A stretch of 64,000 bases of DNA from positions 8,532,843 through 8,596,842 of the forward strand of contig CM119267.1 in the NCBI GenBank assembly GCA_051294375.1, read 5' to 3'. The stretch is from Paraspadella gotoi. Lineage: Eukaryota; Animalia; Chaetognatha. A program made the translations under genes and the position numbers. Below are positions 5,164 through 52,303 of this stretch, one piece after another (positions within the stretch are counted from its first letter, which is position 1; each line of letters starts with the position of its first letter). Below the pieces are notes generated by a model. It worked only from the letters and a program-made list of their open reading frames with translations, was not told the DNA's origin and ran no database searches.

Positions 5164-5246
<83 letters not shown>

Positions 5247-6568: not shown

Positions 6569-6642
<74 letters not shown>

Positions 6643-8050: not shown

Positions 8051-8085
<35 letters not shown>

Positions 8086-11000
8086 TCTCTCTCTCTCTCT
8101 CTCTCTCTCTCTTCTTTCTTTCTTCTCTTATACCCTCTCTCAGTCTCTCCCTTCTTCTCAGCTCCCTGTCTTTTCTGTCTCTCGCTCCCTCCTCATCCCC
8201 TCCTCTCTTCTCCTCTTCTGCCCTCTCTCTCTTCTCCTCTCCCTCTCCTCTCTCTCTCTCACCACAATTCCGCGTTCTTTGGAGAGGAAAACGTTTTAAT
8301 GATTCGCTCGTCGGTTTGAAAGCCCAAAGAAAATGAGCAGAGCGTAGGATGAGAAGTCGGCGTTGGCGTTGACGTTGAGCAATTATTGACCAGATCGGTT
8401 CCATTACTTGTTTTTGAGGCAAGAAGGAAAGGAGGAAAGGAAAGCTGTCCTAGGAGGAACGAGAAGGCTGAAAAGAAAAAAAGCGACAAGAGAAGAAGAA
8501 AAATAGAGCTCTTTCTTTCCTCATTCTTTCTTTAGGCTCCCGGCCTCTCTAAAAGGTCCGCGGCGAAGAAACGATTCAGTATTTCTCTTTTTTTTTTTTA
8601 TATCTGCAAACCAAAAAATTTTGCGTCCTAAAAAAGCAATTATAAGCGGGCAGTAATTAAACAGTTTTATTGACGTCACTGTAACAAGTTAATAAAAAAC
8701 AGTTTTAGCAATATTCAGTCATTTAAGTACGAGAAAAATTTGACCTCATCAACATCTCAGCCTTCATTTGTTAAATCGTCCGCTGAGCGAGGTCTTGACG
8801 AGTTGGCCGAAACTCTTCTAGCTATTTTACCTCACTAAAAAACCTCACTCTTCTTCTCCTATCTACACCCCCCTTCTCCTCCCCCAACCCCCACCTTCGT
8901 CTCCCCCCCCCCAGAGGTTTCCACTCAATTTAGCTTTTACTCTCCCGCACTCAATCCAGTTTCCAAACACCAGCCTCGCATGGGCTCGCGCTCGCACAAA
9001 ACCGACTTGCGACTTACAACGCGCACACACGCGGTGGTCGATTAATACAGTCCATGCGAGTTCTACCTTATGGCACGTACCCGGACTCCATTGCTCGGTG
9101 CCGCGGCAGGAAACGAGCGCCAACTTTTGCATGCGAAACGATTGGTGAGAGCAAATGTTTCCTCGATTCGCGTTCACGCTACAAAGTGAGGCGAAGTTCC
9201 GAGCGACATCGCGCGCTCTCACTTCCTTACCTCCCGTTGACGAGGGCCGCGATTCCAACTCCTCGTCGTATTTCATCCGTTTCCTACCCGGCCGCAACTG
9301 GGGAAAGCATCAATTCGTCGGAGATGAGGTTCTTATTATCGGAAATATATTGGTATTTCCCAATGGGTAAGGATTGAAAAAGTATGCGCCAACGTGATCA
9401 AGGTTTCGAAAAATTTGAGAAAGACTAACCTGGAACCCTAATCCTAATCTGTTAACCGTAAACCTTAGTTCCTTTTAACCGTTAATATCTTTTAACCATA
9501 ATTCCGAATTTAATATAAGAAATGGTACGCTTTTGGGATATATCTCTCGTGCCGAGTCGGCTTTAATTTAAAAAAAAACGATTGATAAAAACAAAGGTTA
9601 TCTAGAGGAATTCCATAAAATTAAATATACTAGCCGAAACAGGCCATGCGCACACGGACCGAGCAACGGGCCACCGGACACGGAAGGCACACGGGCACAC
9701 CCACACCACCACCGGCACCGGCACACCGCACCGGCACACGGGCACACCGGCACGCGAGAATAAGATAAGCCTTCTTTCCTTCTATTCGTAAAGGCCAGTT
9801 TCGGAACGCCAACCGCCGGATAAAAAAAAAATAAATTTTTCCCCAACGTCCCCGCGAAGTGACCCCCTTCTAGGCAGCGGCCATTTCATCATCGCTTCCC
9901 GCGAGGTTTGTCGCCAAAATTCCCGCCTTTTTTTAACCTCATTTACAAAAAAAAAAAAAGAAAACAAAAGGGTTCATTCGCTTATCTACGGTTTTAAAGT
10001 TAAATATAGGGTGAAAGTAAGACATAAAGATTATTTTAACGATTCTTTCTGTTTTTTCCAGGATTTCGCGCGTTTTTTTGTCGACTCGTTTCTTCAATTC
10101 TAGCCCCTAGCGCCCCCTGTCCCACGGCGCCCTATGTTCTCCTTATTGAGCAGTTTTTTTGCCACTTATGTAATCACCCCCTAATTAAAGCGAGAAAAAA
10201 GGGGGGAAAAGTTTCAATGTTCTGTCTGCGGTTTGCAAAAGTAAACAAATCGTAAAAAGTAACGATGGATCAGTAAAACTTTACGGAGATGAAAAATAGA
10301 GAATTGAGGCTTAACAGAATGACATCGCAGGTGAGAAACGCAAGAGAAAACTTCACGACAAAAGTTTTTTTTAAAAACACCTAATCGCCATAACGAGGTA
10401 AGGTCGAGAAAACGGAGAACCGTCCACTGGAGAGAGGAGTGACCGGGAGAAATTGACCTAAGTCAGGGAGGACGTTGAGCATTGACCAAGGTACGCCGCC
10501 AACTTCTGAAAGTTTATGTTATTTCGAGGACGAAATAATATTTAATTATATATAATTATTTAATATATTGATATTAGTAACATACTAGTATAATCCTTTA
10601 AATTAGGTGTGAAATCCATTATTAGTGTGTTGTGTCTGGATTTTCTCTCGAATATTTTTTTTTAATTCGTTAACCAAAAAAAATGGATACCAAAAAGCGT
10701 TTCCAGCCTTCATTAAATTTAATACGGTTTCGAAATGTGCGGAATCGAGCTTTCTTTTTGATAAATTTACAAGGAATTAATTATTCCGCCAAAAACTGAA
10801 TATAAAGTGAATAGCCTCTGGTGGAGTCGCGAAACGTAAAGAAACGAAAAACCGGCGAAACTTGAAACAAAAGCGGAAAGGCTCGAAGCTATGCAGTAGA
10901 TGTGAATAATCAGGAACGGAGGATCGTAGGTTTAGAACAAAGTAATTAAGAATAATAATAGGTAGATAGGAATTAGAAAAAAGAAATAGAATCTTGAGAT

Positions 11001-12838
11001 GAAAAAAATAAAAGCTTTAATTTAAATTTAAAAGAAAATCGGAAAAGGAAAAGACCTAGAGGAAAAAGCTTGGCGCTGAAGACCAAAGATTGGAAAACTG
11101 AAAAGAAATTATCACTCCCAGTTCGAAAAATAGGCAAAGCGAGGATTACTTCTCAAGGAAACAGTCTTCTCTCCACGAGGAGGAAAAGCAAACGAGTGTT
11201 AAAATTTGGCGGTCGACTTTTAACACGAAACTGAGATAAAAGAAGAGCAGGAAAACAAATAGAGGACGTTTCTCGAGACAAAAGAGATAAAAATGAATCC
11301 AAATGTGTCACCAGACAATTTGGAAACACAAAGAGAGATGGTTGGGCCGAGAAAAAAGAAAAAATATTTTTAGTAATGACAAAGAAAGAGAAAAACTTTG
11401 AGGGAATATGGATTTGCTTTTAAGGTTTTTTTTTTGGCAAATTGTTGCTTCTTGGTTTCTACTTTGTTCTGGGATTTTTTTTCTGCCCCGGGTAACTTCG
11501 ACCCCGAAATCCCCCCCCTTAGAAAAATGCTAGGGAAAACCGGGGCGGGGGGTAGCGGCGCAGGTTGGGAGATGGAAAAATAAAACATTAGCTAACCGAA
11601 GTGAAGTTCGGGCGGAAGGAGAGAAAGAAGGAAGGTGCCGAGAACGCGATGATAAATTCAATTATGCGATCGAGTAAACGTTTTCTGTCAATATCACTTC
11701 AATTCGAAGCGGGGAAACTCGCCAACTGGGCTCCAACTCTATCTTTTCTACTAAACGGTATACAGCGAGCATGAAATATCTCAACTATCAATTAATTTTA
11801 AAATTTAAAATAATTTAAGGCTAATAAAAGTTCACGAACATTCTTTGGCCAGTTGAGATTTTTTTTTGCGAAACGAAAAAAAACAAACCGCGCGAGAAAA
11901 AGGGAAAAAATAAAATGGAATAAAAATTTGAAATGGAATGCTAATGTTGACTGAAGAAGGGAAAAGCTTTTTTTTATTTCTCCGGCCCCACGTCTCACTT
12001 TCAATAAAAAGGCGAAGATTTTCTTTTAGGGAGTAAAAAACCGAGACGAGGTGAGCGGAGGTGAAATGAAATGGGAATTATAATGCGGAGGACATAAAGC
12101 GAGGTAAGGTTTAACGTAGCTCTGAGAGAGAGAGAGAGGAGAGAGAGGCTGTTAAACGGTCGAGAAAGGACGATATTTTCTCGCCTTCCCCCACCTTAGA
12201 TCGATTGCCTCATCGAGACAGAAACTTTATATTTCGGATCAATTGGTCTCACAAATAGTTTATATTAATATATTATAGTCTAAAAAAAATATTGTCACCA
12301 TTAAATTTCGCTAATACGCAGCAACAACGTATTGCTAAGCTTTTTTAAAAGGTTTATACAGAATGTGGTTTACTAACTGAGGGAAAGCAGAAGACTGAAA
12401 AATACTCCAGAATGGAATGCGGGAAAAAGAAATAGAGAGGAAAGACGAGAGAGAGAGAGAGAGAGAGAGGAGAGACAGAATGAGAGAAGGAGAGAGGATG
12501 ATGAGAGAGAGAGAGAGAGAGAAATGAGAGAGAGAGAGAGAGAGTTTAACTTCTCCAGAAGATCATGAAAATTTTCTGGATCTAAAGATCTCAGGGCTGC
12601 ATGCCCCATAAATGATAATCGAAGACGATTGGCGAAGAAGAAAAAAAAGATTAAAAAAAATCATTTTCATTAAAAAAAAATATTCAATTCACAGAAGACA
12701 TCGAAAAAAGTGAATGTTTATGCAAATCTCTTTTGGGAGGGAGCACAATGCCTTTTCTTTAGAGAATTTTGAATCTTTTCAGAAGTATTGTGGCAGCAAA
12801 GCACTTAAAGCTTCTCAGCTGCTCTCAATGGCTGAGCA
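4159..12838. repeat. Copy 1 of a ~9.4-kb tandemly repeated segment with no convincing ORF
   Basis: Same ordered landmarks in three copies, e.g. gcatcgaaaccc at ~5286, ~14905 and ~23607, and tattgtggcagca at 12786, 22193 and 30908. Copies differ mostly by 1-bp indels. Confidence 0.9.
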
Positions 12839-14160
12839 TTAAGGCTGGAGCATATCGGTACTTTTCTTTATCTCATCCGATCGTAACAACAAAAAAAAGT
12901 TAGTAAAATACAAGGTGTTTAATTATAATATTTTTATTTAAAAATAATATGTGATCTTCACGATAGCAAAATCGGGCTAAATAGTGGATTATTTTTTTTG
13001 GCGTAGAGATACACCGATTCACTCATTTAAGTTATAAATTTCACTTCATCGGCTAAAAAAAAAATAATCCATCCAACCACAAAGCGTTGCATATAAAAAA
13101 TTGACCAATCAGCATTCATTATTTGCGAATCATTTGCTACTCATTTGTTTATTAGTTTACGAAGGAAAAATTTCGGAAAAAGTTTTTAGAATTAGAATTT
13201 TTAAAAAAATAAGTAGAATAGTATTAGTTTAGGACTAGACTAAGACTTTTGCATGCCAAAATACAAAAAAGGTTTCAACTCGCAGTCAGGAGAAAGACGA
13301 ACATTCTTGGTAGCTCGAAGCCCTTAAATCCATCTCAATTGCCAACTCTTCGCGATGTTTTGTGTCACGCTAAAATATAAAAAGGTTAATACATGTGGAT
13401 AGAATTTTTGATTAACACAGCTGTTGTTTTTTTCTTTTCGTTCATGGCTGATAATTCTCATAATTTAGTTCTTGTATTATGATCCTTTCATTTCGTTGTG
13501 TTTCGCAGATTTAATTGAAATAGTTCAAAATGCGCATTTCTATCAACAATAATTTATATTTTTTAGTTAGAAATTTATTTTCATTTAAGCTGAAATAAAA
13601 AGCATGTCTGTTTTTTCTAATGAAAATACAAAAATCGTTTTTGAAATCCAACTATTTCATTAAATTCTTCTTATTATAGTTCTTATATATTTCATCTTAT
13701 TTAAATTTCACTGGAAGGAAATAACCTCAACACGCGTTTTTTAATCGGTGGCAAAGACATCGTTGGATGTCTATCAGGATCGTGCCAACTCTTCTCTTCC
13801 CGATTTCTGCTTTGGACTGCTTGCGGGTGCGAGTCGAAACGTGCGGAAAGGACTGACACAATGTCACCAATCCCAGGTTCACACTTTTCATAACTTTTGA
13901 TTCCGATCGTCCCGACAAACTTCTTTGACATTCTTAACTGTTAAGTGTCAATTAACTTTCTGTGTTCTGTGATTCGGGATGCGAATGCGAAACTGTGAAT
14001 GGCAAGCGGCATATAGTTTGCCATTGTTGAAAAAGCAAATTAAAATTCCATCAATCGAGCTTCGCTTTCATCTTCGATCAGACGTAACAAAAGTTCACGA
14101 GTTGCGAAAAATGTCTATTGCCCCGGTTGACCCGGGAAAACCACATCTTCTCTCTTTTTT

Positions 14161-14672
14161 TCTGAAAAAATAGGTTAGGGGAAGAAGAAAAAGGAAAAAT
14201 GCATGAGTGAAGATGGAACGTGCAACCGGAGGCTCGAGAGTTGGTGGAACGCGAACCGGATGACTTTGGGTCAGGAGATTAGACTTCGCGGCTGAGAAAC
14301 GAAACTTGGGTTTGAAAGAAACATAACCCCCCCCAAAAAAAACGTATTGTTCGCATACAGACTTTGTATTTAATTCTTTTACGTTCCTTTAACCTCGTCC
14401 ATTAAAACTAAAACGTTTTAAAAACGAAATTGATTAAATTTTCTCAAGCGAGAAATGAAAAACAACGACACATCATAGAAATTATGATGCAGCGGCCCAA
14501 GTTTCTCTCTCTTTTCCAATTTAGACAATTTTTTCGGTTTCTTCTGCTTTTTTATCGCCAACTTTTTTGCGGGGAGATTCCGAGTCCCAACTTTGAACTC
14601 TTTTTTCGACACATTCAACGCTTTGCCCCAGTCAATTACGTTTTCATTGTGTATTCTCTCTCTCTCTCTCTC

Positions 14673-14706
<34 letters not shown>

Positions 14707-14783
14707 CTTCTCTTCTCTTCTCTCTCTCTCTCTCTCTCTCTGTATCATCCATCCGTCTCTCTTTTATTCTTTTCCAAAGTTCT

Positions 14784-14865
<82 letters not shown>

Positions 14866-16181
14866 GCAGTAAAGAAAGAAAGAAAAAAAATTCGACGTCT
14901 TAAAGCATCGAAACCCGGACCGGGACCGTGCCAGCCGTCGCGCAAGAGGGGGGATGGAACCGGCGGGGTGGCCAAGGGAAAATTCGAGGAACATTGGGGT
15001 TGAACAGGGTCATCGAGGGTAAGGAAGACCCAAAAGTCTCTCGCGAAATTAGGCCAGGGAATCGACAGGGGTCAATTAGAAAAACAGGGGAAAAAAGTTG
15101 GAGAAAATTGGAGAAAAAGGCGAAACGTACTCAAACGAAAACATCGCCGTTTAAAACAAAATTTATACAAACATACGAAGTAAAAAAAAAAACCGAAATG
15201 AAAAACGTCGAGAGCGACTTGCTCGCCCTCTTCCTGTCCCCTGTTCCATTTCGGCGATTTGCGAGAAGGAAGCGATAGAGAGTTTTCTGGGCGGAGGAAA
15301 GGAAAGGGATGGAGGATAATCTCTGAAGGACGAATGACCGGAAACAGAAAAGGACGTAATGGGGACGAAGCGGTGTGGAGAGGAGACAAAGGAGGAAGGA
15401 AGAGAGGAAGGGAGGTAAGAAAGAAGGTAGAAAGGATAGAAGGAAGGGAGGATAGAAAAAAGAAACAGGAAGGTAGGAAAAAGAGGAGGAAAGGAAGGAG
15501 GAAGAAGGAAGGAAGGAAGGAAGGAAGAAAGGAAGAAAGGGAAGGAAGGAAGGAAGGAAGAGGAGGAAGAAGGAGAAGGAAGGAAGGAAGGAAGAGGAAG
15601 GAAGGATTGAAGGGAAAAAAGGAATAAAACCGTTAGAAATTGGGAAGGATAAAGAAAGTATAGTAAAAAATGGAAAGAAATCAAGAAGTTAGAAAGAAAT
15701 GACGAAAGGGAGGAAGAAAGGAATGAAGAAAACTAAAAGTAAAAAGGCAAAGAGAAAGGAAAGAAAACAAAAATAAAAGAAAAAAATAAGGAAGGTACAT
15801 AGAATAAAATGACGGAGGAAAAATAAACTGGGGAAAAAAAGGAGAGATAGATATCAGAAGGGGGGAGTCGGTCGCGACAGTTCCATTCCGTTCTGTCCCG
15901 CACGAGTCGTCCCGCTCTGATACAACTCTGTGCGGGCGCGACGCCGATGACGTCGACCTCGCAGCGGCGCCGACCACGCGGCAGCGCCGGCGTCGGCGCC
16001 GCAAAACGGAGGCGACGCTTCTATGGATATTCATTCGAATCCGCGTCCGAAATACGAGGCTTGAATAATGCATGAGACCGAAAGCCGAGGACAGAAAAAA
16101 AAAAGAAAGGGGTCTTTCTGCGACGTCGAAAAGGATTTTTATTTTTTTTTTGAATGAGAGAGAGAGAGAGAGAAGAGAGGA

Positions 16182-16214
<33 letters not shown>

Positions 16215-16554
16215 GAAGAGAGAGAGAAGAGAGAGAGAGAAGAATCAATTAAATTCAAAGTGGAAAACAATCCGAGAAATCTTTTTTTCACCATAGCAAC
16301 TCGGATTTAACAGTCAAAAGATTTGTCGAAAACTGTTTAGGGGAATAATTATGCGTCAACGGTTTAAATCTTCTAAATACGGTTTAGATCGGTTTCATGG
16401 AACCAAGAATGGAATCTTGGATGGAATCTCGGATGGAGTCGACGACTTCTCATCGCGAGTTGGAGAATGCGTCGAGGTCATCACGAGCGACGTCGCGGGA
16501 TTATGACGAGCGTTGTATGCGATGAGGAAAAGAGAGAGAGAGAGAGAGAGAGGA

Positions 16555-16611
<57 letters not shown>

Positions 16612-17044
16612 AGAGCCCGATTATGTGGGTTTTCTTTGGAAGGGTCCAAGCTTTTCGACCCAGAACGTGACTCTGACCTTTTCCCTTCGCCTCTCTAACT
16701 GCCATAGGGTTTCACGAGACGTCGTGGCGGAGAGAACTCGAGTTCGAGCCCTTACGTCTGCGTTCGTGGTCTACCGTGAAGACAGGGCCATTTTGACATC
16801 GTTCCCCGGCGGAAACATCACAATTATCATTGATTAATTAACTGTCAACCAGGAACAGTCGAAATGAGCATCGGCAACAGCTACAAGCACAACAACACGA
16901 CAACAACGACGACGCGAAGATTAACAATCGGCGTTGTTTTCTCGGCCGCCTCGTCCCCGGCGACGCGAAGCAATAAAAAAAACAGCGACTTCGGCGATAA
17001 AACAAAAAACCCGATGGAATAATTAAGGCGCCGCTGCGCGGCGC

Positions 17045-17095
<51 letters not shown>

Positions 17096-17608
17096 TACGA
17101 CGACGATAAAGAACAAACCCATGGTTTCCTTGATGAACGAAAATATTAATCTCCTGTTGGAAAGAATTAGGAAATTAAGGAATTTTATTCGAAAAGTTTG
17201 TCATAGAATGTAGACGAATGTAAAGGAAGTAACCGTTTATAAAAAGTTATTCAGAGAAAACGATAAATATTTTTCAATCATCCTGTTTACGGGTCATAAA
17301 ATGGGAAAAGAAATCCTTTCGCTTCAAACTATCTTCTTCTTTACTTAATTCAGCCTCCTTCAAAAGCGTCCAGAAAAGTCGAGTAAATTCTAGCACCAAA
17401 CAAGCGATAAACCAACAACAAGAAGACTCCGCCCACTCCACCCAGCCCGATCTGTACTCCCGAATCCAGCCCGCCCCTCTACCGACCTCCAATTTCTCTT
17501 TGTGCTTTACATCTTTAAAAAACACCTCGGGCAAGTCCAGCCTCGGGCCTTACATTCCTTGCCAACGCGACAATAAAGATAGCGACGCTTCCTTCCGCCG
17601 CCGGGCTT

Positions 17609-17683
<75 letters not shown>

Positions 17684-20600
17684 ACCCTCTCTCAGTCTCT
17701 CCCTTCTTCTCAGCTCCCTGTCTTTCCTCTGTCTCTCGCTCCCTCCTCATCCCCCCTCTCTCTCTCTCTGCCCGTCTCTCCTTCTCTCTCCCTCTCTCTC
17801 TCTCTCTCACACAATTCCGCGTTCTTTGGAGAGGAAAACGTTTTAATGATTCGCTCCGTCGGTTGAAAGCCCAAAGAAAAATGAGCGAGCGTAGGATGAG
17901 AGTCGGCGTTGGGTTGACGTTGAGCAATTATTGACCAGAAACGAGTTTCCATTACTGTTTTTGAGGCAAGAAGGAAAGGAGGAAAGGAAAGTTCCTAGGA
18001 GGAACGAGAAGGCTGAAAAGAAAAAAGGAAAGAGAGAAGAAAAATAGGAGCTCTTTCTTTCTTCTCATTCTTTCTTAGGCTCCCGGCCTCTTCTTTAAAA
18101 GGTCCCGCGCGAAGAAACGATTCAGTATTTCTCTTTTTTTTTTTATATCTGCAACCAAAATTTTCGTCTCGATTATAAGCGGCAGTAATTAAACATTTTA
18201 TTGACGTCACTGTAACAGTTTAAAAAACAGTTTTAGCAATATTCAGTATTTAAGTACGAAAAATTTGACCTCATCAACATCTCAGCCTTCAATTTGTAAA
18301 TTCGTCCGTGAGCGAGTCTGACGAGTGGCGAAACTCTCTAGCTATTTTACCTCACAAAAAAACCTCACCTTCTTCTTCCTTCTACACCCCCCTCTCCTCC
18401 CCCAACCCCCAACCTCGTCTCCCCCCCCCAGAGGTTTCCACCTCAATTTAGCTTTTTACTCTCCCGTCACTCAATCCAGTTTCCAAACACCAGCGCTCGC
18501 ATGGGCTCGCGCTCGCAAAACCGACGTGGAGCTTACACGCGCACACACGCGTGTCGATTAATACAGTCCATGCGAGTCCTACCTACTGGCCGTACCCGGG
18601 CTCCATTGCGTGCGCGGCAGGAAACGAGCGCCAACTTTTGCATGCGAAACGATTGGGAGAGCAAATGTTTCCTCGATTCGCGTCACGTACAAAGTGAGCG
18701 AAGTTCCGAGCGACATCGCGCGCCTCTCACTCACTTACCTCCCGTTGACCGAGGCTCGCGATTCCAACTCGCTCGTCGTATTTCCATCCTTTCCCTACCC
18801 GCCGCAACTGGGGGAAAGCATCAATTCGTCGGAGAATGAGGTTCTTATATCGGGAAAATATTGGGTATTTCCAATGGGTAAGGATTGGAAAAGATGCGCC
18901 AACGTGATCAAAGGTTTCGAAAATTTGCTAACCATGGAACCCTAATCCCTAATCTGTAACTAAACCTTAGTCCTTTAACCTTTAACCTAATCTTTAAACC
19001 ATAATCCGAATTTAATATAAGAAATGGGACGTTTGGGATAATCCTCGTGCCGAGTCGGCTTTAATTTTTAAAAAAACGATTGAAAAACAAATGGTTATCA
19101 GAGGAATTCCATAAAAATTATAGCAAACACATCAGCGACAGAGAACACCGCAACCGGGGCACACCGGGCACATCGGGCACACCGGCACATGCAGAATAGA
19201 AGATAAGCTCTTTCCCTTCTATTCGTAAAGCCAGTTCGAACGCCAACCGCCGATAAAAAAAAATAAATTTTTCCCCAACGTCCCCGCGATAGATGACCCC
19301 CTTCGAGGCAGCGGCCATTCATCATCGCTTCCGCGAGGTTTGTCGCCAAAATTCCCGCCTTTTTTAACCTCATTTACCAAAAAAAAAAAGAAAACAAAAG
19401 GTTCATTTCCTTATCTCACGGTTTTAAAGTTAAATATAGGGTGAAAGTAAGATATAAAGATTATTTTCAACGATTCTTTCTGTTTTTTCTCAGGATTCGC
19501 GCGTTTCTTTTGTCGACTCGTTTCTTCAATTCTAGCCCCTAGCGCCCCCTTCCCCGGCGCCTTGTTCTCCTTTTGAGCAGTTTTTTGCCACTTATGTATC
19601 ACCCCTAATTAGCGAGAAAAAAAGGGGGGAAAGTCAATTGTCTGTCTGCGTTTGCAAAAGTAAACAAATCGTAAAAAGTAACGAGGATCATAAAACTTTA
19701 CGGAGATGAAAATAGAGAATTGAGGCTTAACAGAATGACATCGCAGGTGAGAAACGCAAAGATGAAAAATTCACGACAAACAGTTTTTTTTTTAAAAACA
19801 CTAATCGCCATAACGAGGAAGGTCGAGAAAGGGAGAGCCGTTCCACTGGAGAGAGAGGACCGGAGAAATGACCTAAGTCAGGGAGACGTTGAGCATTGAC
19901 AAGGTTGCGCCGCAACTTCTGAAAGTTTATGTTATTTCGAGGACGAAATAATATTTAATATATATATATTATTTAATATATTGATATTAGTAACATACTG
20001 TATAAATCCTATTAAAATTAGGTGGAAATCCATTATTATGTGTTGTGCGTCTTGTCGATTTTCTTCTTGAATATTTTTTTTTAATTCGTTTACCAAAAAA
20101 AAAATGGAGTTTATCCATAACAAGAAGTTTCCAAGCTTCATTAAATTTAATACGGTTTCTATAATGGCGGATCGAGCTTTCTTTTTGATAAATTTACAAG
20201 GAATTAATTATTCCCCAAAAACTGAATATAAAGTGAATACGCCTCTGGTGGAGGTGCGACGAGAAACGAAGAACCGGCGAAACTGGAAACCAAAAGGGAA
20301 AGGCTCGAAGCTATGCAGTAAGATGTGAATAATCAGGAACGGAGGATCGTAGGTTTAGAACAAGAATAAGAATGAATAATAGGTAGATAGGAATTAGAAA
20401 AAGAAATAGAATCTTGAGATGAAAAATAAAAGCTTTAATTTAAATTTAAAAGAAAATCGAAAAGAAAGACCTCAAGAAAAAAGCTTGGCGCTGAAGACCA
20501 AAGATGGAAACTGAAAGAAATTATCACTCACAGTTCGAAAAAATAGGCAAAGCGAGGTATTACTTCTCAAGAAACAGTCTCTCTCCACGAGGAGGAAAAG

Positions 20601-22245
20601 CAAACGAGGTTAAAATGGCGAGTCGACTTTTAACACGAAACTGAGATAAAGAAGAGGCAGGAAAACAATAGAGGACGTTTCTCGAGACAAAAGAGATAAA
20701 ATGAATCCAAATGTGTCACCAGACAATTTGAAACACAAAGAGAGATGGTTGGGCCGAGAAAAAAGAAAAAATATTTTTAGTAATGACAAAGAAAGAGAAA
20801 AACTTTGAGGGAATATGGATTTGCTTTTAAGGTTTTTTTTTTGGCAAATTGTTGCTTCTTGGTTTCTACTTTGTTCTGGGATTTTTTTTCTGCCCCGGGT
20901 AACTTCGACCCCGAAATCCCCCCCCTTAGAAAAATGCTAGGGAAAACCGGGGCGGGGGGTAGCGGCGCAGGTTGGGAGATGGAAAAATAAAACATTAGCT
21001 AACCGAAGTGAAGTTCGGGCGGAAGGAGAGAAAGAAGGAAGGTGCCGAGAACGCGATGATAAATTCAATTATGCGATCGAGTAAACGTTTTCTGTCAATA
21101 TCACTTCAATTCGAAGCGGGGAAACTCGCCAACTGGGCTCCAACTCTATCTTTTCTACTAAACGGTATACAGCGAGCATGAAATATCTCAACTATCAATT
21201 AATTTTAAAATTTAAAATAATTTAAGGCTAATAAAAGTTCACGAACATTCTTTGGCCAGTTGAGATTTTTTTTTGCGAAACGAAAAAAAACAAACCGCGC
21301 GAGAAAAAGGGAAAAAATAAAATGGAATAAAAATTTGAAATGGAATGCTAATGTTGACTGAAGAAGGGAAAAGCTTTTTTTTATTTCTCCGGCCCCACGT
21401 CTCACTTTCAATAAAAAGGCGAAGATTTTCTTTTAGGGAGTAAAAAACCGAGACGAGGTGAGCGGAGGTGAAATGAAATGGGAATTATAATGCGGAGGAC
21501 ATAAAGCGAGGTAAGGTTTAACGTAGCTCTGAGAGAGAGAGAGAGGAGAGAGAGGCTGTTAAACGGTCGAGAAAGGACGATATTTTCTCGCCTTCCCCCA
21601 CCTTAGATCGATTGCCTCATCGAGACAGAAACTTTATATTTCGGATCAATTGGTCTCACAAATAGTTTATATTAATATATTATAGTCTAAAAAAAATATT
21701 GTCACCATTAAATTTCGCTAATACGCAGCAACAACGTATTGCTAAGCTTTTTTAAAAGGTTTATACAGAATGTGGTTTACTAACTGAGGGAAAGCAGAAG
21801 ACTGAAAAATACTCCAGAATGGAATGCGGGAAAAAGAAATAGAGAGGAAAGACGAGAGAGAGAGAGAGAGAGAGAGGAGAGACAGAATGAGAGAAGGAGA
21901 GAGGATGATGAGAGAGAGAGAGAGAGAGAAATGAGAGAGAGAGAGAGAGAGTTTAACTTCTCCAGAAGATCATGAAAATTTTCTGGATCTAAAGATCTCA
22001 GGGCTGCATGCCCCATAAATGATAATCGAAGACGATTGGCGAAGAAGAAAAAAAAGATTAAAAAAAATCATTTTCATTAAAAAAAAATATTCAATTCACA
22101 GAAGACATCGAAAAAAGTGAATGTTTATGCAAATCTCTTTTGGGAGGGAGCACAATGCCTTTTCTTTAGAGAATTTTGAATCTTTTCAGAAGTATTGTGG
22201 CAGCAAAGCACTTAAAGCTTCTCAGCTGCTCTCAATGGCTGAGCA
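14161..22245. repeat. Copy 2 of the ~9.4-kb repeated segment
   Basis: Begins tctgaaaaaatagg, matching ~4268. The ORF track gives identical peptides at offset 9407 (11370 vs 20777, 12373 vs 21780, 13701 vs 23108). Confidence 0.9.
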
Positions 22246-23568
22246 TTAAGGCTGGAGCATATCGGTACTTTTCTTTATCTCATCCGATCGTAACAACAAA
22301 AAAAAGTTAGTAAAATACAAGGTGTTTAATTATAATATTTTTATTTAAAAATAATATGTGATCTTCACGATAGCAAAATCGGGCTAAATAGTGGATTATT
22401 TTTTTTGGCGTAGAGATACACCGATTCACTCATTTAAGTTATAAATTTCACTTCATCGGCTAAAAAAAAAATAATCCATCCAACCACAAAGCGTTGCATA
22501 TAAAAAATTGACCAATCAGCATTCATTATTTGCGAATCATTTGCTACTCATTTGTTTATTAGTTTACGAAGGAAAAATTTCGGAAAAAGTTTTTAGAATT
22601 AGAATTTTTAAAAAAATAAGTAGAATAGTATTAGTTTAGGACTAGACTAAGACTTTTGCATGCCAAAATACAAAAAAGGTTTCAACTCGCAGTCAGGAGA
22701 AAGACGAACATTCTTGGTAGCTCGAAGCCCTTAAATCCATCTCAATTGCCAACTCTTCGCGATGTTTTGTGTCACGCTAAAATATAAAAAGGTTAATACA
22801 TGTGGATAGAATTTTTGATTAACACAGCTGTTGTTTTTTTCTTTTCGTTCATGGCTGATAATTCTCATAATTTAGTTCTTGTATTATGATCCTTTCATTT
22901 CGTTGTGTTTCGCAGATTTAATTGAAATAGTTCAAAATGCGCATTTCTATCAACAATAATTTATATTTTTTAGTTAGAAATTTATTTTCATTTAAGCTGA
23001 AATAAAAAGCATGTCTGTTTTTTCTAATGAAAATACAAAAATCGTTTTTGAAATCCAACTATTTCATTAAATTCTTCTTATTATAGTTCTTATATATTTC
23101 ATCTTATTTAAATTTCACTGGAAGGAAATAACCTCAACACGCGTTTTTTAATCGGTGGCAAAGACATCGTTGGATGTCTATCAGGATCGTGCCAACTCTT
23201 CTCTTCCCGATTTCTGCTTTGGACTGCTTGCGGGTGCGAGTCGAAACGTGCGGAAAGGACTGACACAATGTCACCAATCCCAGGTTCACACTTTTCATAA
23301 CTTTTGATTCCGATCGTCCCGACAAACTTCTTTGACATTCTTAACTGTTAAGTGTCAATTAACTTTCTGTGTTCTGTGATTCGGGATGCGAATGCGAAAC
23401 TGTGAATGGCAAGCGGCATATAGTTTGCCATTGTTGAAAAAGCAAATTAAAATTCCATCAATCGAGCTTCGCTTTCATCTTCGATCAGACGTAACAAAAG
23501 TTCACGAGTTGCGAAAAATGTCTATTGCCCCGGTTGACCCGGGAAAACCACATCTTCTCTCTTTTTTT
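20730..23568. repeat. Apparently base-identical 2.8-kb duplicate of ~11323-14161
   Basis: Identical by eye including microsatellite irregularities. Ends at a gap of exactly 25 N (23569-23593). Confidence 0.85.
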
Positions 23569-23593
23569 NNNNNNNNNNNNNNNNNNNNNNNNN

Positions 23594-25325
23594 CGACGTC
23601 TTTAAAGCATCGAAACCCCGGGACCGGGACGCGTGCCAGCCGTCGCGCAAGAGGGGGGGATGAGAACCGGCGGGGTGGCCAAGGGAAAATTCGAGGGAAC
23701 ATTGGGGTTGAACAGGGTCATCGAGGGTAAGGAAGACCCAAAAGTCTCTCGCGAAAATTAGGCCAGGGAAATCGACAGGGGTCAATAGAAAAACAGGGGA
23801 AAAAAGTTGGAGAAAATTGGAGAAAAAAGGCGGAAACGTATCAAACGAAAACATCGCCGTTTAAAACAAAATTTATACAAACATACGAAGTAAAAAAAAA
23901 ACCGAAATGAAAAACGTCGAGAGCGACTTGCTCGCCCTCTTCCTGTCCCCTGTTCCATTTCGGCGATTTGCGAGAAGGAAGCGATAGAGAGTTTCTGGGC
24001 GGAGGAAAGGAAAGGGATGGAGGATAATCTCTGAAGGACGAATGACCGGAAACAGAAAAGGGACGTAATGGGGACGAAGCGGTGTGGAGAGGAAGACAAA
24101 GGAGGAAGGAAGGAGGAAGGGAGGTAAGAAAGAAGGTAGGAAAGGATAGAAGGAAGGGAGGATAGAAAAAAGAAACCAGGAAGGTAGGAAAAAAGGAGGA
24201 GGAAGGAAGGAGGAAGGAAGGAAGGAAGGAAGGAAGGAAGGAAGGAAGGAAGGAAGGAAAAGAAAAAAGAGAGAAGAAGTAAAGAAGAAAGATAGAAGAA
24301 AGAGAAAGAAGAAGAAAGGAGGAGGAGGAAGGAGGAGGGAGGAAGGATTGAAGGGAAAAAAGAAGGAATATAAAACCGTTAGAAATTGGGAAGGATAAAG
24401 GGAAAGTGATAAGTAAAAATGGAAAGAAATCGAAGAAACGAAGAAGGGAGGAAGAAAGGAATGAAGAAAACTAAAAGTAAAAAGGCAAAGAGAAAGGAAA
24501 GAAAACAAAAATAAAAAAGAAAAAAATAAGGAAGGTACATAGAATAAAATGACGGAGGAAAAAATAAACTGGGGAAAAAAAAGGAGAGATAGATATCAGA
24601 AGGGGGAGTCGGTCGCGACAGTTCCATTCCGGTTCTGTCCCGCACGAGTCGTCCCGCTCTGATACAACTCTGTGCGGGCGCGACCGCCGATGACGTCGAC
24701 CTCGCAGCGGCGCCGACCACGCGGCAGCGCCGGCGTCGGCGCCGCAAAACGGAGGCGACGCTTCTATCGGATTTCATTCGAATCCGCGTCCGAAATACGA
24801 GGCTTGAATAATGCATGAGACCGAAAGCCGAGGACAGAAAAAAAAAGAAAGGGNNNNNNNNNNNNNNNNNNNNNNNNNNNNNNNNNNNNNNNNNNNNNNN
24901 NNNNNNNNNNNNNNNNNNNNNNNNNNNNNNNNNNNNNNNNNNNNNNNNNNNNNNNNNNNNNNNNNNNNNNNNNNNNNNNNNNNNNNNNNNNNNNNNNNNN
25001 NNNNNNNNNNNNNNNNNNNNNNNNNNNNNNNNNNNNNNNNNNNNNNNNNNNNNNNNNNNNNNNNNNNNNNNNNNNNNNNNNNNNNNNNNNNNNNNNNNNN
25101 NNNNNNNNNNNNNNNNNNNNNNNNNNNNNNNNNNNNTAGGGGGAATAATTATGCGTCAACGGTTTAAATCTTCTAAATACGGTTTAGATCGGTTTCATGG
25201 AACCAAGAATGGAATCTTGGATGGAATCTCGGATGGAGTCGACGACTCTCATCGCGAGTGGAGAATGCGTCGAGGTCATCACGAGCGACGTCGCGGATTA
25301 TGACGAGCGTTTGTATGCGATGAGG

Positions 25326-30671: not shown

Positions 30672-30956
30672 TTTAACTTCTCCAGAAGATCATGAAAATT
30701 TTATGGATCTAAAGATCTCAGCTGATGCCCCATAAATGATAATCGGAAGACCGATGGCGAAGAAGAAAAAAAGATTAAAAAAATCATTTTCATTAAAAAA
30801 AAATATTCAATTCACAGAAGACATCAGAAAAAAGTGAATGTTTATGCAAATCTCTTTTGGGAGGGGAGACAATGCCTTCTTAGAGAATTTTGAATCTTTT
30901 CAGAAGGTATTGTGGCAGCAAGACTTAAAGCTGTCTCACTGCTCAATGGCTGAGCA
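23594..30956. repeat. Copy 3 of the repeated segment, 5'-truncated after a 25-N gap and running on into unique sequence
   Basis: Colinear with copies 1 and 2 from cgacgtctt to tggctgagca, then diverges from them. Confidence 0.9.
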
Positions 30957-30999
30957 GGCTATATCATCTCGTTACAACCGTGCGTCCTTTGTTCAATCC
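30947..30999 (+). promoter_or_regulatory. tRNA-type (Pol III type 2) internal promoter, A box plus B box
   Basis: A box TGGCTGAGCAGG (30947-30958) fits TRGCNNARYNGG. B box GTTCAATCC (30991-30999) fits GTTCRANNC. Spacing is tRNA-like. The B box is conserved in copy B (49015-49023). Confidence 0.65.
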
Positions 31000-31015
31000 C
31001 TGGGTATCCCGGTTC

Positions 31016-31097
31016 TAGCTCAATTGTGACGGAGCCGGTCTAAACATGCCAGTGACAGGAGGCGGTCACTGAGGGTCCCCAGCCCCTACGCCAGTTG
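31016..31097 (+). ncRNA. Twister ribozyme-like motif, circularly permuted (P1 closed, P5 open)
   Basis: In order: P2' TTGT (31024-27), GA, T1' CGGA, short P1 hairpin, TAA (31041-43, predicted cut U^A), P2 ACAT, GC, P3 CAGTGAC/GTCACTG (7 bp perfect), P4 AGG/CCT closing loop GTCCCCAGCC. As I recall them, validated twisters have GUCCCAAGCC or GUCCUAAGCC in this loop. Confidence 0.65.
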
Positions 31098-31318
31098 ATG
31101 AGATACCCCGCGTCCCGGGTATCACTGGCATTCCTCCCGTTGCCATAGTATTAGAACTTACACGAACTGGGGATTATTGAAAGCAAGCATTAGTTATTGT
31201 CCAATAGAGAAGAATTTTTAAAGTTTTTCGATCAAAAAACTGTGATTTAGCCTGATTTTGTTAGTTTTGAACGAATGATTTTTCTATTTTTTTTTTAATA
31301 TATATATATTTTTTTTAA

Positions 31319-32521
31319 ATGTCGAGTAAAATGAACGCGGAATGGTTCTCCCGCCACCTCAACGAGACGATCTCTTCGGTGGATTGGGGCGACAAGATCG
31401 CCGGCTTCATGAGCGCCGTGAAGATGGTTCGACTGACGACGACGAGCGGGGAGACTCGCGCCTTGGCCGTCAAGATCATCGCCGAGGGCGGAGACCGGGA
31501 GACGATCGAGGTTCTCGGGACTGTTCGCGAGGCAGACTTTTACAATTACGTCGCTGCGCTGGCGACGGAGCAGCGAGACGCTTTCGACGAGGTCCTTCCG
31601 CGCGTCTTCTTCGCCGAGAGCGACTGGACGAAGGGGACGAAGACTGTGATTATGGAAGATCTCTGCTTCAAAAGCGGCGGCGACAGCGGCGGCGGAAGCA
31701 GCGGCGGCGTCGTGAATTCTTCCTTATTCTTCGGCCCGAAATGCCCGGCGAATAAGGGCAAGGATCTGACGGCGGCGACGGCCTCTTGTCCGGGCGTCAA
31801 GGCAGAGGAGGTCGCTCGGGTCAGCTTCGTCGCTCTGGCAAAGATCCACGCAAAATTCTGGCGTCGGGAAGAACTGCAGCAGTTGACTTGGCTCTTCGGG
31901 GTTCGTTGGCGGAAGGGCGAATGGAAAGAAGGTTGGGAGTCGGTGACGAATCGATGGCGAATGGGCTTCGGCTTTTTGCGTCCAGAGTTGGAGGTCGGCG
32001 CTTTACTCCATTCGGTCTCGCCCGATCTCTTGCGATGTCTCGTCGCCTCCGCCGAGAAATTGAGCTGGGAGAATTTTCGAGAAGAGACGAAATCGACGCC
32101 GTGGACTCTGATTCACGGAGACTTTCAACCCAAGAACGTATTGTGGATGGGAAAGGACAAGAATCACAGGGCGAGGTTCCTCGACTGGGATTTCGTCGGC
32201 GTGGGCAGCGGCGCTCAAGAATTGGGTCACTACGTCATCTTTAATTTGGACGTGGCCGAGCTCGGGAAAGAGTCGCACAAGAGATTGGTGACGGCCTACC
32301 ACGAGGAATTGATCAAAATCAATCCCGGCCTCAAAACCGAATTTCCCTTTCGAATTTGTTGGGAGGAATTCGTCTATGGAGGATTTAGGAAGAGCGTCTT
32401 CATGCTGCCCGTCGTGGCGATGATTGACTCGGATTCGCTGCCCTACTACTTGGCTCAGATGGAAGGATTTAGAAGGATGCACGACATTGTGCCCGAAAAA
32501 GTCGGCTTTCCCAGAATGTGA
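31319..32521 (+). CDS. Intronless aminoglycoside-phosphotransferase / ecdysteroid-kinase-like (EcKL, choline-kinase fold) small-molecule kinase, 400 aa
   Basis: Uninterrupted GC-rich ORF. Motifs in order: AVK lysine, READFY, IMEDL hinge, LAKIHAKFW, Brenner motif TLIHGDFQPKN, metal-binding FLDWD, GSGAQELG. Confidence 0.9.
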   Translation: MSSKMNAEWFSRHLNETISSVDWGDKIAGFMSAVKMVRLTTTSGETRALAVKIIAEGGDRETIEVLGTVREADFYNYVAALATEQRDAFDEVLPRVFFAESDWTKGTKTVIMEDLCFKSGGDSGGGSSGGVVNSSLFFGPKCPANKGKDLTAATASCPGVKAEEVARVSFVALAKIHAKFWRREELQQLTWLFGVRWRKGEWKEGWESVTNRWRMGFGFLRPELEVGALLHSVSPDLLRCLVASAEKLSWENFREETKSTPWTLIHGDFQPKNVLWMGKDKNHRARFLDWDFVGVGSGAQELGHYVIFNLDVAELGKESHKRLVTAYHEELIKINPGLKTEFPFRICWEEFVYGGFRKSVFMLPVVAMIDSDSLPYYLAQMEGFRRMHDIVPEKVGFPRM

Positions 32522-41136: not shown

Positions 41137-41144
41137 TGACTTAC

Positions 41145-42719
41145 CGACTTGGTTGTCCCCATCCTTGAGGGTGCTCCATGCGGGCGTCTCCCACGGGGGC
41201 GCGTTCGAAGCGAGGACGCAGATGTTGGAGTAGATTCCGCGCGCCGCGGCGGCGCAGTGCGGGAAGGTCAGCGTCACCATCTGCGTGAGAGGAGATGGTC
41301 GAAGATAAAAGGGGATCTCGGGTCAGAGATGGAAAGATTTTATGGATCAATTAAGGGATTAATTTAATTTCTTATATTTAATAGGTTTGAATATAATTTT
41401 TTTTTTATTAAAAAAACGTACGACTAGTCGACTACAAATGACTCTAAATATTGATAAACAGAATCAGAAGCCGAAAAATCGATAAACTAGTTAACGACTA
41501 TGATCTTTTTAAAATCACTTTAATACTATAATTCCTTACCCAGACCATATTAAAAACTAACTAAAGAAACCGAGGCAAAAAAATAACCAATAAAACCAGA
41601 TCGAGTTCATTTCCGAGACCGTTCTCTTTTCGTACTAAAACCCTGTCGACCAAAAAGCATCAAAATTTCCTTCCCCACGCCCGGTCACCTTATTGAAGTT
41701 GACGCCCCTGGGCCGGCAGACGACTACGGGTGCTATTCTCGTGTCACCGGGTCTCAAAGAGGGCGTGTCAATCTGCGTCCATGACACGCCCACCGTCACG
41801 TCGATGAAGTGACCGTCGGGGACGGCGCCGGGCGGGATCTGAAGGTCGTCGGTAAGTTAATCGTTTAACTTTCCTTTTTGAAAAATAGACTAAATATACT
41901 AAACGAAATAACAAAATTTGTTAGCAACAAATTTTGTTATTTCTTCTAGTCTCAAACACAACGAAACGAAAGAATTATATACAATGAAAAATAGATTATG
42001 CTGTGAGTGTCTCCGAAGCTGGTAGGGTTTTGTTATAAGTATGTCATTATCTGGAAAAAAATTATCAAGGCGTTAACCAATCGTAGCAAGATAGCTCGTT
42101 CATTAAACGAATGTATCAATTTAATAATCGTAATACTTCAGGACAGTCCCATTCGATCAATTGGCCTCACACCCGAGCCCGATCAACTATCCAGTATCTA
42201 CCAGGCCAAACCACCCCTCCGACTCACCATAAGCGTGACCCCTGTGTCGGCTGCCCTGAGGATTCCACCGAAGTGATCGACCCGGAAGGAATAAAGGTAA
42301 CGGAGATGCGGTGAGTGGCCGGCGAGTAGTTTACGGAATTCCTGCGTTTGCTCGTGGGTGGACGGCGAGAGGCAGCTCACTGGGGGAGATTACGTGAGGT
42401 GGGGGGGAGGGAATTGATTTAATTAAGTTTTAATCAATTATATAATTCCACGAGATTGTAGTGAAAAGTATTTTAGTCTTAGTTTAAATACTGTAACATT
42501 TACAAAAAAAAAGAGCAAAGTTTGGGTACTTTTAGGAAACTGTTTGTACGCGATCTGCGGCTAATCACCTGCTCCCTGAATGTTAGCCGGTTGAAGGTTT
42601 TGAAAGGTTGAAGACACTGAAAGAAAATAGAAAACAGTGAAAGAGCAGTTCAGGGCCGGGGGGCAGTGAAGTAGGCCCGACGGAGAGAGGAAAGACGAGG
42701 AGAAAGAAGAGACGAGAGA

Positions 42720-48926: not shown

Positions 48927-49162
48927 TGTGGCAAATCCTAAATTCGCCTGCCGTATAGCTTGGTGAAACTCAGCTTGGATAGCTAAGTACTCGTTCACCA
49001 ACCGTGAGTTCCGGGTTCAATCCCCTCACAGTCACGCAAGTTAAAGTGTGATGGTGTTGGCATTAAAACATACCAGTAATATGGGGTGGTCACTGCAGGT
49101 ACAAATCACTGAGCGCCAGCTCTCGGGAGATGCCTGGGGTGTAAGGCATCTCCGTTGCCATA
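48927..49162 (+). mobile_element. Solo-LTR-like element, copy B (236 bp), diverged, with degenerate twister core
   Basis: TGTGGCAA...CGTTGCCATA with TSD ATAT (48923-26 and 49163-66). Shares tcgtt..caaccgtg, gttcaatccc, tgtga, aaacat.ccagt, ggtcactg and cgccag with copy A in the same order. Confidence 0.75.
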
Positions 49163-50181: not shown

Positions 50182-51204
50182 ATGCCCGAAAATTCTCGCC
50201 ACGAAATCCACGTTCCGCCCGAACTTCCTCCGCTGTTGGAGGAATTCACGGTCTCCGTCCTGCGGAATCAACCGAGCGATCTTCTCGCCTACGCCGCCGA
50301 ATATTTCGTGCGCGTTCGCGACGAACGCCTGAACGACCACTCGACGCGCGGCGTCGGGTTTCACGATGAGATCGTCGCCGGCGACTCGCAAGAGAAGTGG
50401 CACGAAGAGGTGGAGAACTATGGAAACAGGCGGAAGTCGGTGGCGGCGGAAAAATACGACCCGACGCAGGTGAGGGGTTATGGGGGGGGGGAAGTTGGGA
50501 AGGTTCGATTCTCGGAATAGAGAGAGGGCTTTTTTCGAATAAGTGATGCAGAAAGGACAAATGCGATCCACAATGGATAAGGTTGGTTAAAAAGGTTCTC
50601 GAGATCTTCTGGAGAAGAGTTTTTTTTTTTTTGTGAAAAAGGCCAGAAGTCTCCGATTCTCAAATAGTAAGACGTTGCGAGAAAATCAAATGGCTCACGT
50701 TGAAACGTCCCTCTTCAGGACGACCAGGACACGATCGATTCGATGTGCGAGGACAAGACCGATGAGCAGTCGACGATGTTGCTAGGGAGGCTCAACGAAG
50801 GATTCCTCTTCGACTCCATCGATTTGCGGATGCGGAAGAAGGTCGTCCGCGCCTTGAAGGTGGCAAAGATCGAAAGTTGTCGAATGTTTCCGGGAGAAAA
50901 CTTCATGACTTCGAGTGGATTGAGTTTGACAACTCGGTGTTCAGTTCTAATAGTTGCCGTTTAACTCCCTGATGTCCCTTCTGCTCCTCCCCCCACTCCC
51001 GCGGTCCAAAGGAACGCCGCGTCCGCTCCGGCGAATACATCATTCGCCAGGGCGAATCTGGAGACTTTTATTACATCATCGAGCAAGGAGAGTTCGCCAT
51101 CTTCGTAAAGGAGAACGCGAACGAGGGCGGAGACGGGAAGCAGATAGAAGTCTTGAAGGATCACGGGTCCTTTGGGGAATTGGCGCTCATGTTCGTGAAT
51201 GAGA

Positions 51205-51256
<52 letters not shown>

Positions 51257-52303
51257 TCCCCCCCCCTTCTTCAGGTACGACCAGCCACGATCGGCGACCA
51301 TCCGCGCCTTGACCGAGGGAACGCTCTGGGCTTTGGATCGCGCCACATTTAGACGAATCATAGTCTTCGGGTGAAGAAAGAACTTCTCGAACTTGACCAA
51401 TCGGAAAAAAGGATTTTTTTAATCTACTCTTGATTTTTCCCTCCCGCCGCCGCCGCCGACGCCGCAGCGCCTATCAGCGGCGAGTCATGGTAAACAAGAC
51501 TCTGATGCAGATTCCGATGCTGGCGCCTCTGACGGAAGACGATCGCAACAACCTCGTCGACGCCCTCGTCATGCGCTCTTTCGAAGATGGCGATCAAATC
51601 ATTCATCAGGTGTTTGAGAAATGAGAGAGAGAGAGANNNNNNNNNNNNNNNNNNNNNNNNNNNNNNNNNNNNNNNNNNNNNNNNNNNNNNNNNNNNNNNN
51701 NNNNNNNNNNNNNNNNNNNNNNNNNNNNNNNNNNNNNNNNNNNNNNNNNNNNNNNNNNNNNNNNNNNNNNNNNNNNNNAGAGAGAGAGAGAGACCATCTC
51801 AACTCCATCCACCCTCAAGGGCGACGTCAACGCGGATTCGATGTTCATCATCGAAGAAGGCGAAGTCTCCATCGTCGTCCAACAATTGGGAGGTCATCCA
51901 CGAGAGATCACACGCCTCCACGCCAAGGATTACTTTGGAGAGAGGGCGCTGGTGACGCTGGAGCCGCGGCAGGTCAATCGATAGATCGGAAGTGTCGGGC
52001 GACGGGGATGAATTCAACGCCGTTCCCCCCGCAGGCGTCGGCATTCGCCGTCGGGGAAGTGACGGTGATGGAACTGAGGGTCGACGCCTTCGAGAGATTC
52101 CTCGGCCCTTGCATCGAAGTCATGAAGAGAAACATGGCCTTCTACGAAGAGCAGGTCCGATAGGAGCGATCCAGTCGAGCGCCTCGAGTTCTCGTGAGGC
52201 TACAACCGGAAGACGCCCGTCCCCATTTTCTCCGTTGCAGGTCTCCGCCATCTTTGGAGGATCCGACGAAGATTCTATGAGCTCCGCCAGGAGATCCAGC
52301 TGA
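50182..52303 (+). CDS. PRKAR2: cAMP-dependent protein kinase type II regulatory subunit (393 aa, 8 exons)
   Basis: Exons 50182-50469, 50719-50859, 51012-51190, 51275-51370, 51468-51609, 51820-51972, 52035-52154, 52241-52303. RIIa docking domain (IHVPPELPPLLEEFTVSVLRNQPSDLLAYAAEYF), RII inhibitor site RRKSV, CNB-A GSFGELALMYDQPRSAT, CNB-B YFGERALVTLEPRQAS, and FERFLGPCIEVMKRNMAFYEEQ. Confidence 0.95.

Follow-up and report, generated by a model that had tools for sequence, protein, structure and literature searches.

A putative twister ribozyme in a high-copy, LTR-like element with a tRNA-type promoter in the chaetognath Paraspadella gotoi

The described elements that come closest to the one reported here are found in plants and in animals. 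In the LTR retrozymes of plants, each LTR carries a hammerhead ribozyme, solo LTRs occur, a circle model accounts for replication and a Gypsy element has been proposed as the helper (Cervera et al. 2016, PMC4918200). The Helenus elements of animals have a tRNA-like LTR, a 4-bp target-site duplication (TSD), a Gypsy-type PBS and solo LTRs (Kojima 2024, PMC10886601). The preliminary description of the present locus had Helenus with 5S and Ajax with tRNA-like sequence, which is the reverse of what the available part of that paper gives (Helenus tRNA-like, Ajax 5S; PMC10886601). RtcB circularization and dimeric hammerheads with palindromic loops have been reported in axolotl (PMC7229834), and the portions of reviews available to us place twisters at the 5′ ends of RTE elements and treat animal retrozymes as non-LTR (PMC7761336, PMC6765202, PMC8501958). 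One review, available in part, adds that type III hammerhead elements occur in insects, with work in preparation. The accessible portions of the literature outside subscription papers, Repbase and Dfam describe neither a dimeric twister nor one that resides in an LTR element or a tRNA-LTR element.

The window analyzed here, the whole 64-kb stretch of DNA, contains two complete copies of a short repeat and two partial ones. On balance, we favor the view that the copy at 30911-31147 (copy C) is a decayed member of a high-copy family and represents a solo LTR left by a Helenus-like (TRIMp3) element, whose twister would need a dimer of two LTRs in order to cut. Its parts, and the other copies in the window, are as follows.

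30907..30910 (no strand): left TSD, GTAT, read from the sequence
30911..31147 (+): family C copy, likely a solo LTR, 237 bp, delimited by a step in depth and by loose ends at 30910/30911 and 31147
30911..30939 (+): fixed 5′ segment, U3-like, preceding the Pol III start that tRNA spacing predicts
30947..30958 (+): A-box-like motif in its best reading of the sequence, TRGCY as in Helenus
30987..31003 (+): T-arm-like stem with the B box at 30990-31000, from the sequence and the family majority
31102..31123 (+): GC-rich 7-bp hairpin near the 3′ end of the element, with a related hairpin in family D
31148..31151 (no strand): right TSD, GTAT, read from the sequence
48927..49162 (+): copy of a sister family (D), more decayed, with identical ends, flanked by ATAT/ATAT at 48923-26 and 49163-66
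12789..12838 and 22196-22245 (+): first ~50 bp of the copy C insertion, ending inside the A box

The GTAT on both sides and the 237-bp extent lie where the preliminary description had placed them, the A and B boxes that it named are present, and its claim of fixed ends with 4-bp TSDs holds for both complete copies in the window (GTAT and ATAT). Copy C starts with TGTGGCA and has CCGTTGCCATA as its 3′ end, the full end-to-end form being TGTGGCA...TTGCCATA. The terminal TA that had been listed as a caveat is indeed present; it occurs in both copies and in some Helenus LTRs. An alternative, overlapping A box can be read at 30939-30949. The B box core, GTTCAATCC, is unbroken, and its GGTTC is the family C majority at ~99% of depth in the run contigs. 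The T-stem keeps 3/5 pairs in this copy and 5/5 in family C, both broken pairs being standard in the family majority; in copy D, judged by eye, it also keeps 3/5. No tRNA gene was called by ARAGORN. Copy C is without ~20 nt that are common in the 5′ segment of family C, as seen from depth and from loose ends at 30942/30943, and the fixed bases that precede the predicted Pol III start (~30940) number ~30 in copy C and ~50 in the family. Neither copy contains a run of four T. The two copies are identical at 152/222 aligned letters (68%), and both families retain a GC-rich hairpin just before the 3′ end (31102-31123 in C, 49128-49153 in D), with the D copy apparently lacking ~20 nt in that region.

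The surroundings of copy C offer some observations of their own. The element ends ~170 bp upstream of an intronless 400-aa EcKL/APH kinase-like ORF (31319-32521, + strand) that has one weak database match, and no sign of a functional link was seen at the locus; the genes neighboring this ORF have many introns. The window further holds a spliced gene for the type II regulatory subunit of PKA (50182-52260, + strand) and ZU5-domain (UNC5-like) exons (41140-42380, - strand). All named matches of these two are animal; the best matches reach 46-49%, and named animal proteins reach ~42% over the searched stretch, i.e., they are divergent. From 4267 to 30956 the window consists of ~3 tandem 9.4-kb units that are 83-92% identical with many small indels. 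Two of the units break in the A box of the element; from there they run into TTAA followed by 1.3 kb of unrelated sequence, which may be the end of a DNA transposon. The heads at 12785 and 22192 lie in this tandem duplication; they derive from the same insertion and are not independent events.

In contigs of public sequencing runs, copies C and D belong to separate families, and both are abundant. Depth over C in run X1 is 140,000-720,000 compared with ~178 on the flanks, with the same step in three other runs; over the 5′ half of D in run X1 it is 172,000-495,000 versus ~162 on the flanks, and over the diverged D core 55,000-165,000 against the same flank value of ~162. Depth in the families is thus mostly ~1,000 times that of the flanks, or higher, and since summed depth is no copy number we state copies as of the order of thousands only. 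Loose ends stack at 30910/30911 and at 31147, the latter with at least 31, 17, 26 and 7 contigs in four runs, and at 48927 of copy D with at least 34, 29 and 28 contigs in three runs; beyond them the flanks are unrelated, with agreement of 0.39-0.58 among the matches listed. ATAT precedes the D element in at least 14 contigs of run X2, a recurrence that suggests a target-site preference. Copies truncated 5′ at the predicted cleavage site were considered and rejected, as two of the three loose ends listed at 31041 read as diverged upstream homologue. Three joints lead from inside family D back to the D start among the matches listed, each in at least two runs; they are at single-copy depth, the intervening letters are not given, and nested or neighboring copies explain them equally well. 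One joint record of 304 nt could accommodate ~120 nt of interior, provided that the upstream piece sits at the start of the record. Other single-copy contigs join the 3′ end of the element to another copy, at its B-box region or at a sequence resembling an A box, junctions that suggest nesting of insertions within related or tRNA-like sequence. Contigs of run X9, which we guess to be RNA, cover the elements and the kinase ORF and hardly the flanks, a coverage that we do not count as evidence because contigs give no strand, start or level.

Downstream of the B box, copy C contains the parts of a twister in permuted order. Their numbering follows, in part, what we take to be the usual scheme.

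31015..31094 (+): P5-open (permuted) twister, from the Rfam alignment, a descriptor and family pairing
31015-19 with 31090-94: P5 helix, 4/5 pairs
31024-27/31044-47: P2, 3/4 pairs
31028, 31029: putative general base G31028, then A31029
31030-32/31077-79: T1, 2/3 pairs
31033..31040 (+): self-complementary 8-nt P1 segment, 6/8 positions pairing in copy C
31041..31042 (+): predicted cleavage site U^A, from alignment to the Rfam twister-P1 consensus, with U^AA at 31041-43
31048-49/31082-83: T2, 2/2 pairs
31050-56/31065-71: P3, 7/7 pairs
31072-75/31084-87: P4, 4/4 pairs, with its loop at 31075-84

Every part of the core named in the preliminary description (G31028, U^AA, P2, T1, T2, P3 and P4) is found at the position it gave; the P5 helix is an addition. 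The conserved twister letters (the AA of the cleavage site, the GA of the general base, the GC of T2 and L4) are present in copy C with the exception of C31080, which replaces the A of the usual A.A pair and is the state of family C. The search with Rfam models that had been proposed earlier gave a weak result: twister-P1 matched at 31037-31105 with 24.4 bits (E 0.015), far below the gathering score of 67.2, and twister-P5 and twister-P3 (clan CL00120) did not match copy C, the scans covering the decayed window copies. As the twister-P1 model is open at P1, only the downstream half of the permuted fold is properly aligned by it. The Rfam scan gave no twister match in copy D (48927-49162) and no hammerhead match in copy C. 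A P5-open descriptor, composed after the motif was seen, found the copy C twister as its sole site in the window when up to two misses were allowed. In 3063 block-shuffled windows it matched 370 times (~12%) at that setting, four times when a P3 of at least 7 bp was also demanded, and once with no misses. In an energy model copy C forms neither P2 nor P5 (pair probability <0.1), and its fold is no more stable than those of shuffled sequences (z 0.27). In view of the shuffle rates and the Rfam score, the decayed copy C on its own is good, not overwhelming, evidence of a twister. Motif scans elsewhere gave 14 loci in metagenome contigs and 12 in viral contigs; 0/14 of the former had an Rfam match, and there was no descriptor match among the loci scanned with it. 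Both sets are regarded as chance.

It is the family-level pairing and covariation that is the stronger evidence for the predicted twister than the Rfam score. All four twister pairs that are broken in copy C (one each in P5, P2, P1 and T1) are standard in the family majority, and the restored pairs mostly stand at ~99% of depth, with two P1 letters at 69-96%. The mismatches in P2 and T1 that had been noted as caveats are real in this copy but reflect its decay, both helices being paired in the family majority. Six pairs are broken in copy D, four of which are standard in family D; the remaining two include positions 49106 and 49108 (L4/T2), which are missing from the majority table. Among the matches listed, one contig's loose end shows these two paired, and several contigs stop aligning at 49104-49105. 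Between the families, the third pair of T1 is G-C versus A-U (C-G in the Rfam consensus), a P2 pair changes on both sides (U-A versus C-G), and so do two P4 pairs (A-U versus C-G and G-C versus A-U); the changes in P1 and P5 are single-sided and keep the pairing. The covariation that the preliminary description had wished to see is thus present as four double-sided pair changes, in a comparison of two families rather than in R-scape statistics. From the sequences of both families, we consider it very probable that families C and D carry a selected twister ribozyme. Copy C itself may be weakly active, a reading based on the published tolerance of such flaws although the modeled fold is without P2 and P5. 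In the available parts of the published data, an A-to-C change at the usual A.A position is tolerated in natural twisters, flaws in P1 and P2 and a C.C in the same pseudoknot are tolerated fairly well, and twisters with two flaws in the pseudoknot are on average 0.55 cleaved compared with 0.76 (PMC11662667), while T1 pairs can be replaced by other pairs (PMC5113685).

In the majority sequences of both families, the 8-nt segment that separates T1 from the cleavage site is fully self-complementary, and this suggests that cleavage takes place in a dimer of two copies. The duplex pairs are U-A, G-U, C-G and C-G in family C and U-A, G-C, U-G and C-G in family D. The inner two pairs are impossible within one molecule, and P1 in cis is limited to 2 bp, compared with 8 bp when two copies pair. 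The earlier remark that P1 measures only 1-2 bp was right in this sense but had overlooked what looks like a palindromic helix between two copies. The calculated homoduplex is worth -10.9 and -9.5 kcal/mol in families C and D, and the cis hairpin is unfavorable at +5.0 and +2.9 kcal/mol; 2.8% of 20,000 random 8-mers reach -9, and the chance of the inner two pairs is ~14%. As the two families are related, the palindrome counts as roughly a single observation, to which two changes that preserve pairing are added. There is a parallel in the retrozyme hammerheads of amphibians, which have a one-pair stem and a palindromic loop and cleave efficiently only as dimers (PMC7229834). P1 is, on the other hand, largely dispensable in type-P1 twisters, according to the available parts of two studies (PMC11662667, PMC5113685), and cleavage of the monomer might therefore occur. 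With these points taken together, we lean toward dimer-dependent cleavage, as modeled from the pairing energies.

Among known elements, the chaetognath family probably belongs with Helenus/TRIMp3, which it resembles in having A and B boxes in an LTR-like unit of 120-320 bp, TG... ends, a 4-bp TSD and no coding capacity; some Helenus LTRs also begin with TGTGGCAG or end with TA, as does the element here. The differences are that Helenus is known with two LTRs and a short interior, whereas the chaetognath element is known from solo copies, and that no ribozyme is described for Helenus in the available portion of PMC10886601, where the word occurs once, in the title of a reference. A motif search of the deposited Helenus consensus sequences, as far as available and with line breaks that may hide motifs, gave neither the twister-loop motif nor a matching 3′ end. 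Two of these elements, Helenus-2_SyJa and Helenus-2_SyUm of Synergus gall wasps, have 277-bp LTRs, an interior of 485/487 bp and a 4-bp TSD, with tRNA-Trp listed for the PBS of Helenus-2_SyJa (PMC10886601). Judged by eye against the hammerhead consensus, both LTRs contain what looks like a complete type III hammerhead, its loops complementary, downstream of the B box. This hammerhead is unmentioned in the available portion of PMC10886601, and no wasp LTR hammerhead is described in the open-access literature as far as it was available. Like the chaetognath repeat, these LTRs combine a tRNA-type promoter with a self-cleaving ribozyme fold downstream of it, no TTTT and a 4-bp TSD; unlike it, they have as ribozyme fold a type III hammerhead, with complete helices, in place of a twister, and their interior is known. 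From their sequences, Helenus-2_SyJa and Helenus-2_SyUm look like animal LTR retrozymes. The statement in the preliminary description that no tRNA-LTR with a twister had been described still stands, with the qualification that a tRNA-LTR bearing a ribozyme has a precedent in the two wasp elements.

The likeness to plant LTR retrozymes lies in the ribozyme within the LTR, the 4-bp TSD and the solo LTRs; there, however, the ribozyme is a hammerhead, the hosts are plants, the LTRs measure 300-400 bp, Pol III goes unmentioned in the part of the paper available to us and circles are demonstrated (PMC4918200), whereas the chaetognath family is known as sequence only. Membership among LTR retrozymes goes with a hammerhead, and here the predicted ribozyme is a twister. 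The metazoan non-LTR retrozymes are likewise animal, short and released as units by a ribozyme, with palindromic-loop dimer cleavage in amphibians (PMC7229834), and the hammerhead SINE-like repeats of Schistosoma share the combination of a Pol III promoter with a ribozyme (PMC6765202), but both differ in being tandem, in having no LTR ends, PBS or PPT, in their longer TSDs and in their hammerhead (PMC7229834, PMC6765202). Type-P5 twisters share the twister core, as do the T-variant twisters of Perere-3, which are also associated with a retroelement (PMC8501958); the latter occupy the 5′ end of an RTE LINE, where the target site supplies P1 (PMC8501958), while the chaetognath twister is internal and permuted with a palindromic P1. 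By analogy with these systems, the chaetognath element is most likely one that works like an LTR retrozyme.

We now put forward a hypothetical cycle, which we infer in all its steps by modeling on plant LTR retrozymes and on the RtcB ligation of animal retrozymes. In a master element with two LTRs, Pol III would start near 30940 of the 5′ LTR and read through, as the LTR is without a run of four T. Pairing of the 5′ and 3′ LTRs through their palindromic P1 segments would then create two swapped active sites, and each LTR would be cut at U^A. The unit thus freed (U5-PBS-interior-PPT-U3-tRNA head) would have no terminal repeat and would be circularized by an RtcB-type ligase, and the circle would resist being cut again because a single twister remains in it. 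A Gypsy helper would copy round the circle by reverse transcription, and the DNA would integrate with a 4-bp duplication; solo LTRs would arise by recombination between LTRs or from short cDNAs. Of the separate parts of this proposal, we are fairly confident that the element is of LTR type, incline modestly to a retrozyme-like cycle as its mechanism, and see the chances for and against a circular RNA intermediate as evenly balanced. An LTR element is favored because the fixed bases upstream of the Pol III start can be copied from a 3′ LTR and not by a SINE. A SINE is ruled out by this fixed 5′ sequence, by the absence of a tail and by the 4-bp TSD, and a Helitron-type element by true duplications that differ between the copies. 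Both complete copies in the window are solo, no second LTR, PBS or PPT being seen with either. Pfam found no Gypsy, retrotransposon or transposase domain in 94 ORFs of the window, a set drawn mostly from outside the duplicated stretch 4900-23600.

The alternatives differ from this proposal in how the twister is used or in whether it matters at all. The element might be a solo LTR whose monomeric twister forms the 3′ end of the RNA, cutting in the 3′ LTR and being off in the 5′ LTR to yield a linear RNA with an R repeat of ~100 nt. The lack of T4 in either copy fits this, given that many Helenus LTRs, judged by eye in the sequences available, have a T-run after the B box, and so does the dispensability of P1 in type-P1 twisters; yet it leaves the kept P1 palindrome unexplained and calls for a context switch between identical sequences, of which no sign was found, and we think it unlikely. 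The palindrome is no difficulty if the element consists of LTR alone, without an interior, since just two copies are needed: head-to-tail masters would undergo dimer cleavage, form circles and be inserted as single units by integrase-type machinery. The solo form, seen in both complete copies, would then be the normal product, joints back to the element start occur in several runs, and solo-LTR cDNAs are permitted by the retrozyme model (available part of PMC4918200). However, a primer site is not evident in the unit, the 64-kb window holds no tandem array and the returning joints are at single-copy depth, which leaves this possibility a rather small probability.

A miniature DNA transposon might carry the tRNA-twister cassette as a passenger, moved by a Ginger-like transposase, a class that presumably makes 4-bp TSDs, or by another transposase that does. 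Short imperfect inverted ends, 4-bp duplications and the occurrence of solo copies only are in line with this, and in the predicted fold of copy D its two ends are paired; the inverted ends measure merely 7-8 bp, though, and four compensatory pairs and a promoter kept at 68% identity are not expected from DNA-level copying. This covariation of RNA structure disfavors the DNA transposon, which we judge improbable. That the resemblance to a twister is due to chance would agree with the weak Rfam score and with the ~12% of shuffled windows matching the loose descriptor, but the pairing and covariation in two families and the rate of 4/3063 under the P3 condition reduce this to a very slight probability.

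The essence of our preferred reading is that pairing between two LTRs would switch the twister on. Tentatively, and with more doubt than for any of its parts, one may envisage a class of animal LTR retrozymes defined by a tRNA promoter, an obligately dimeric, domain-swapped twister, LTR pairing within one transcript and a repeat-free circle that resists its own ribozyme, with the wasp Helenus-2 elements having the same design built on a hammerhead. The comparison suggests that two ribozyme classes were recruited to the same place in Pol III-driven LTR elements of animals. If the proposal is true, twisters would have a role beyond the 5′ ends of LINEs, and the retrozyme model, in which an LTR element replicates without an R repeat via a circle, becomes testable in a second kingdom and in a very short element. 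If P1 forms only between copies, this would be a simple answer to the problem of the circle cutting itself, and the element would provide a natural two-copy switch.
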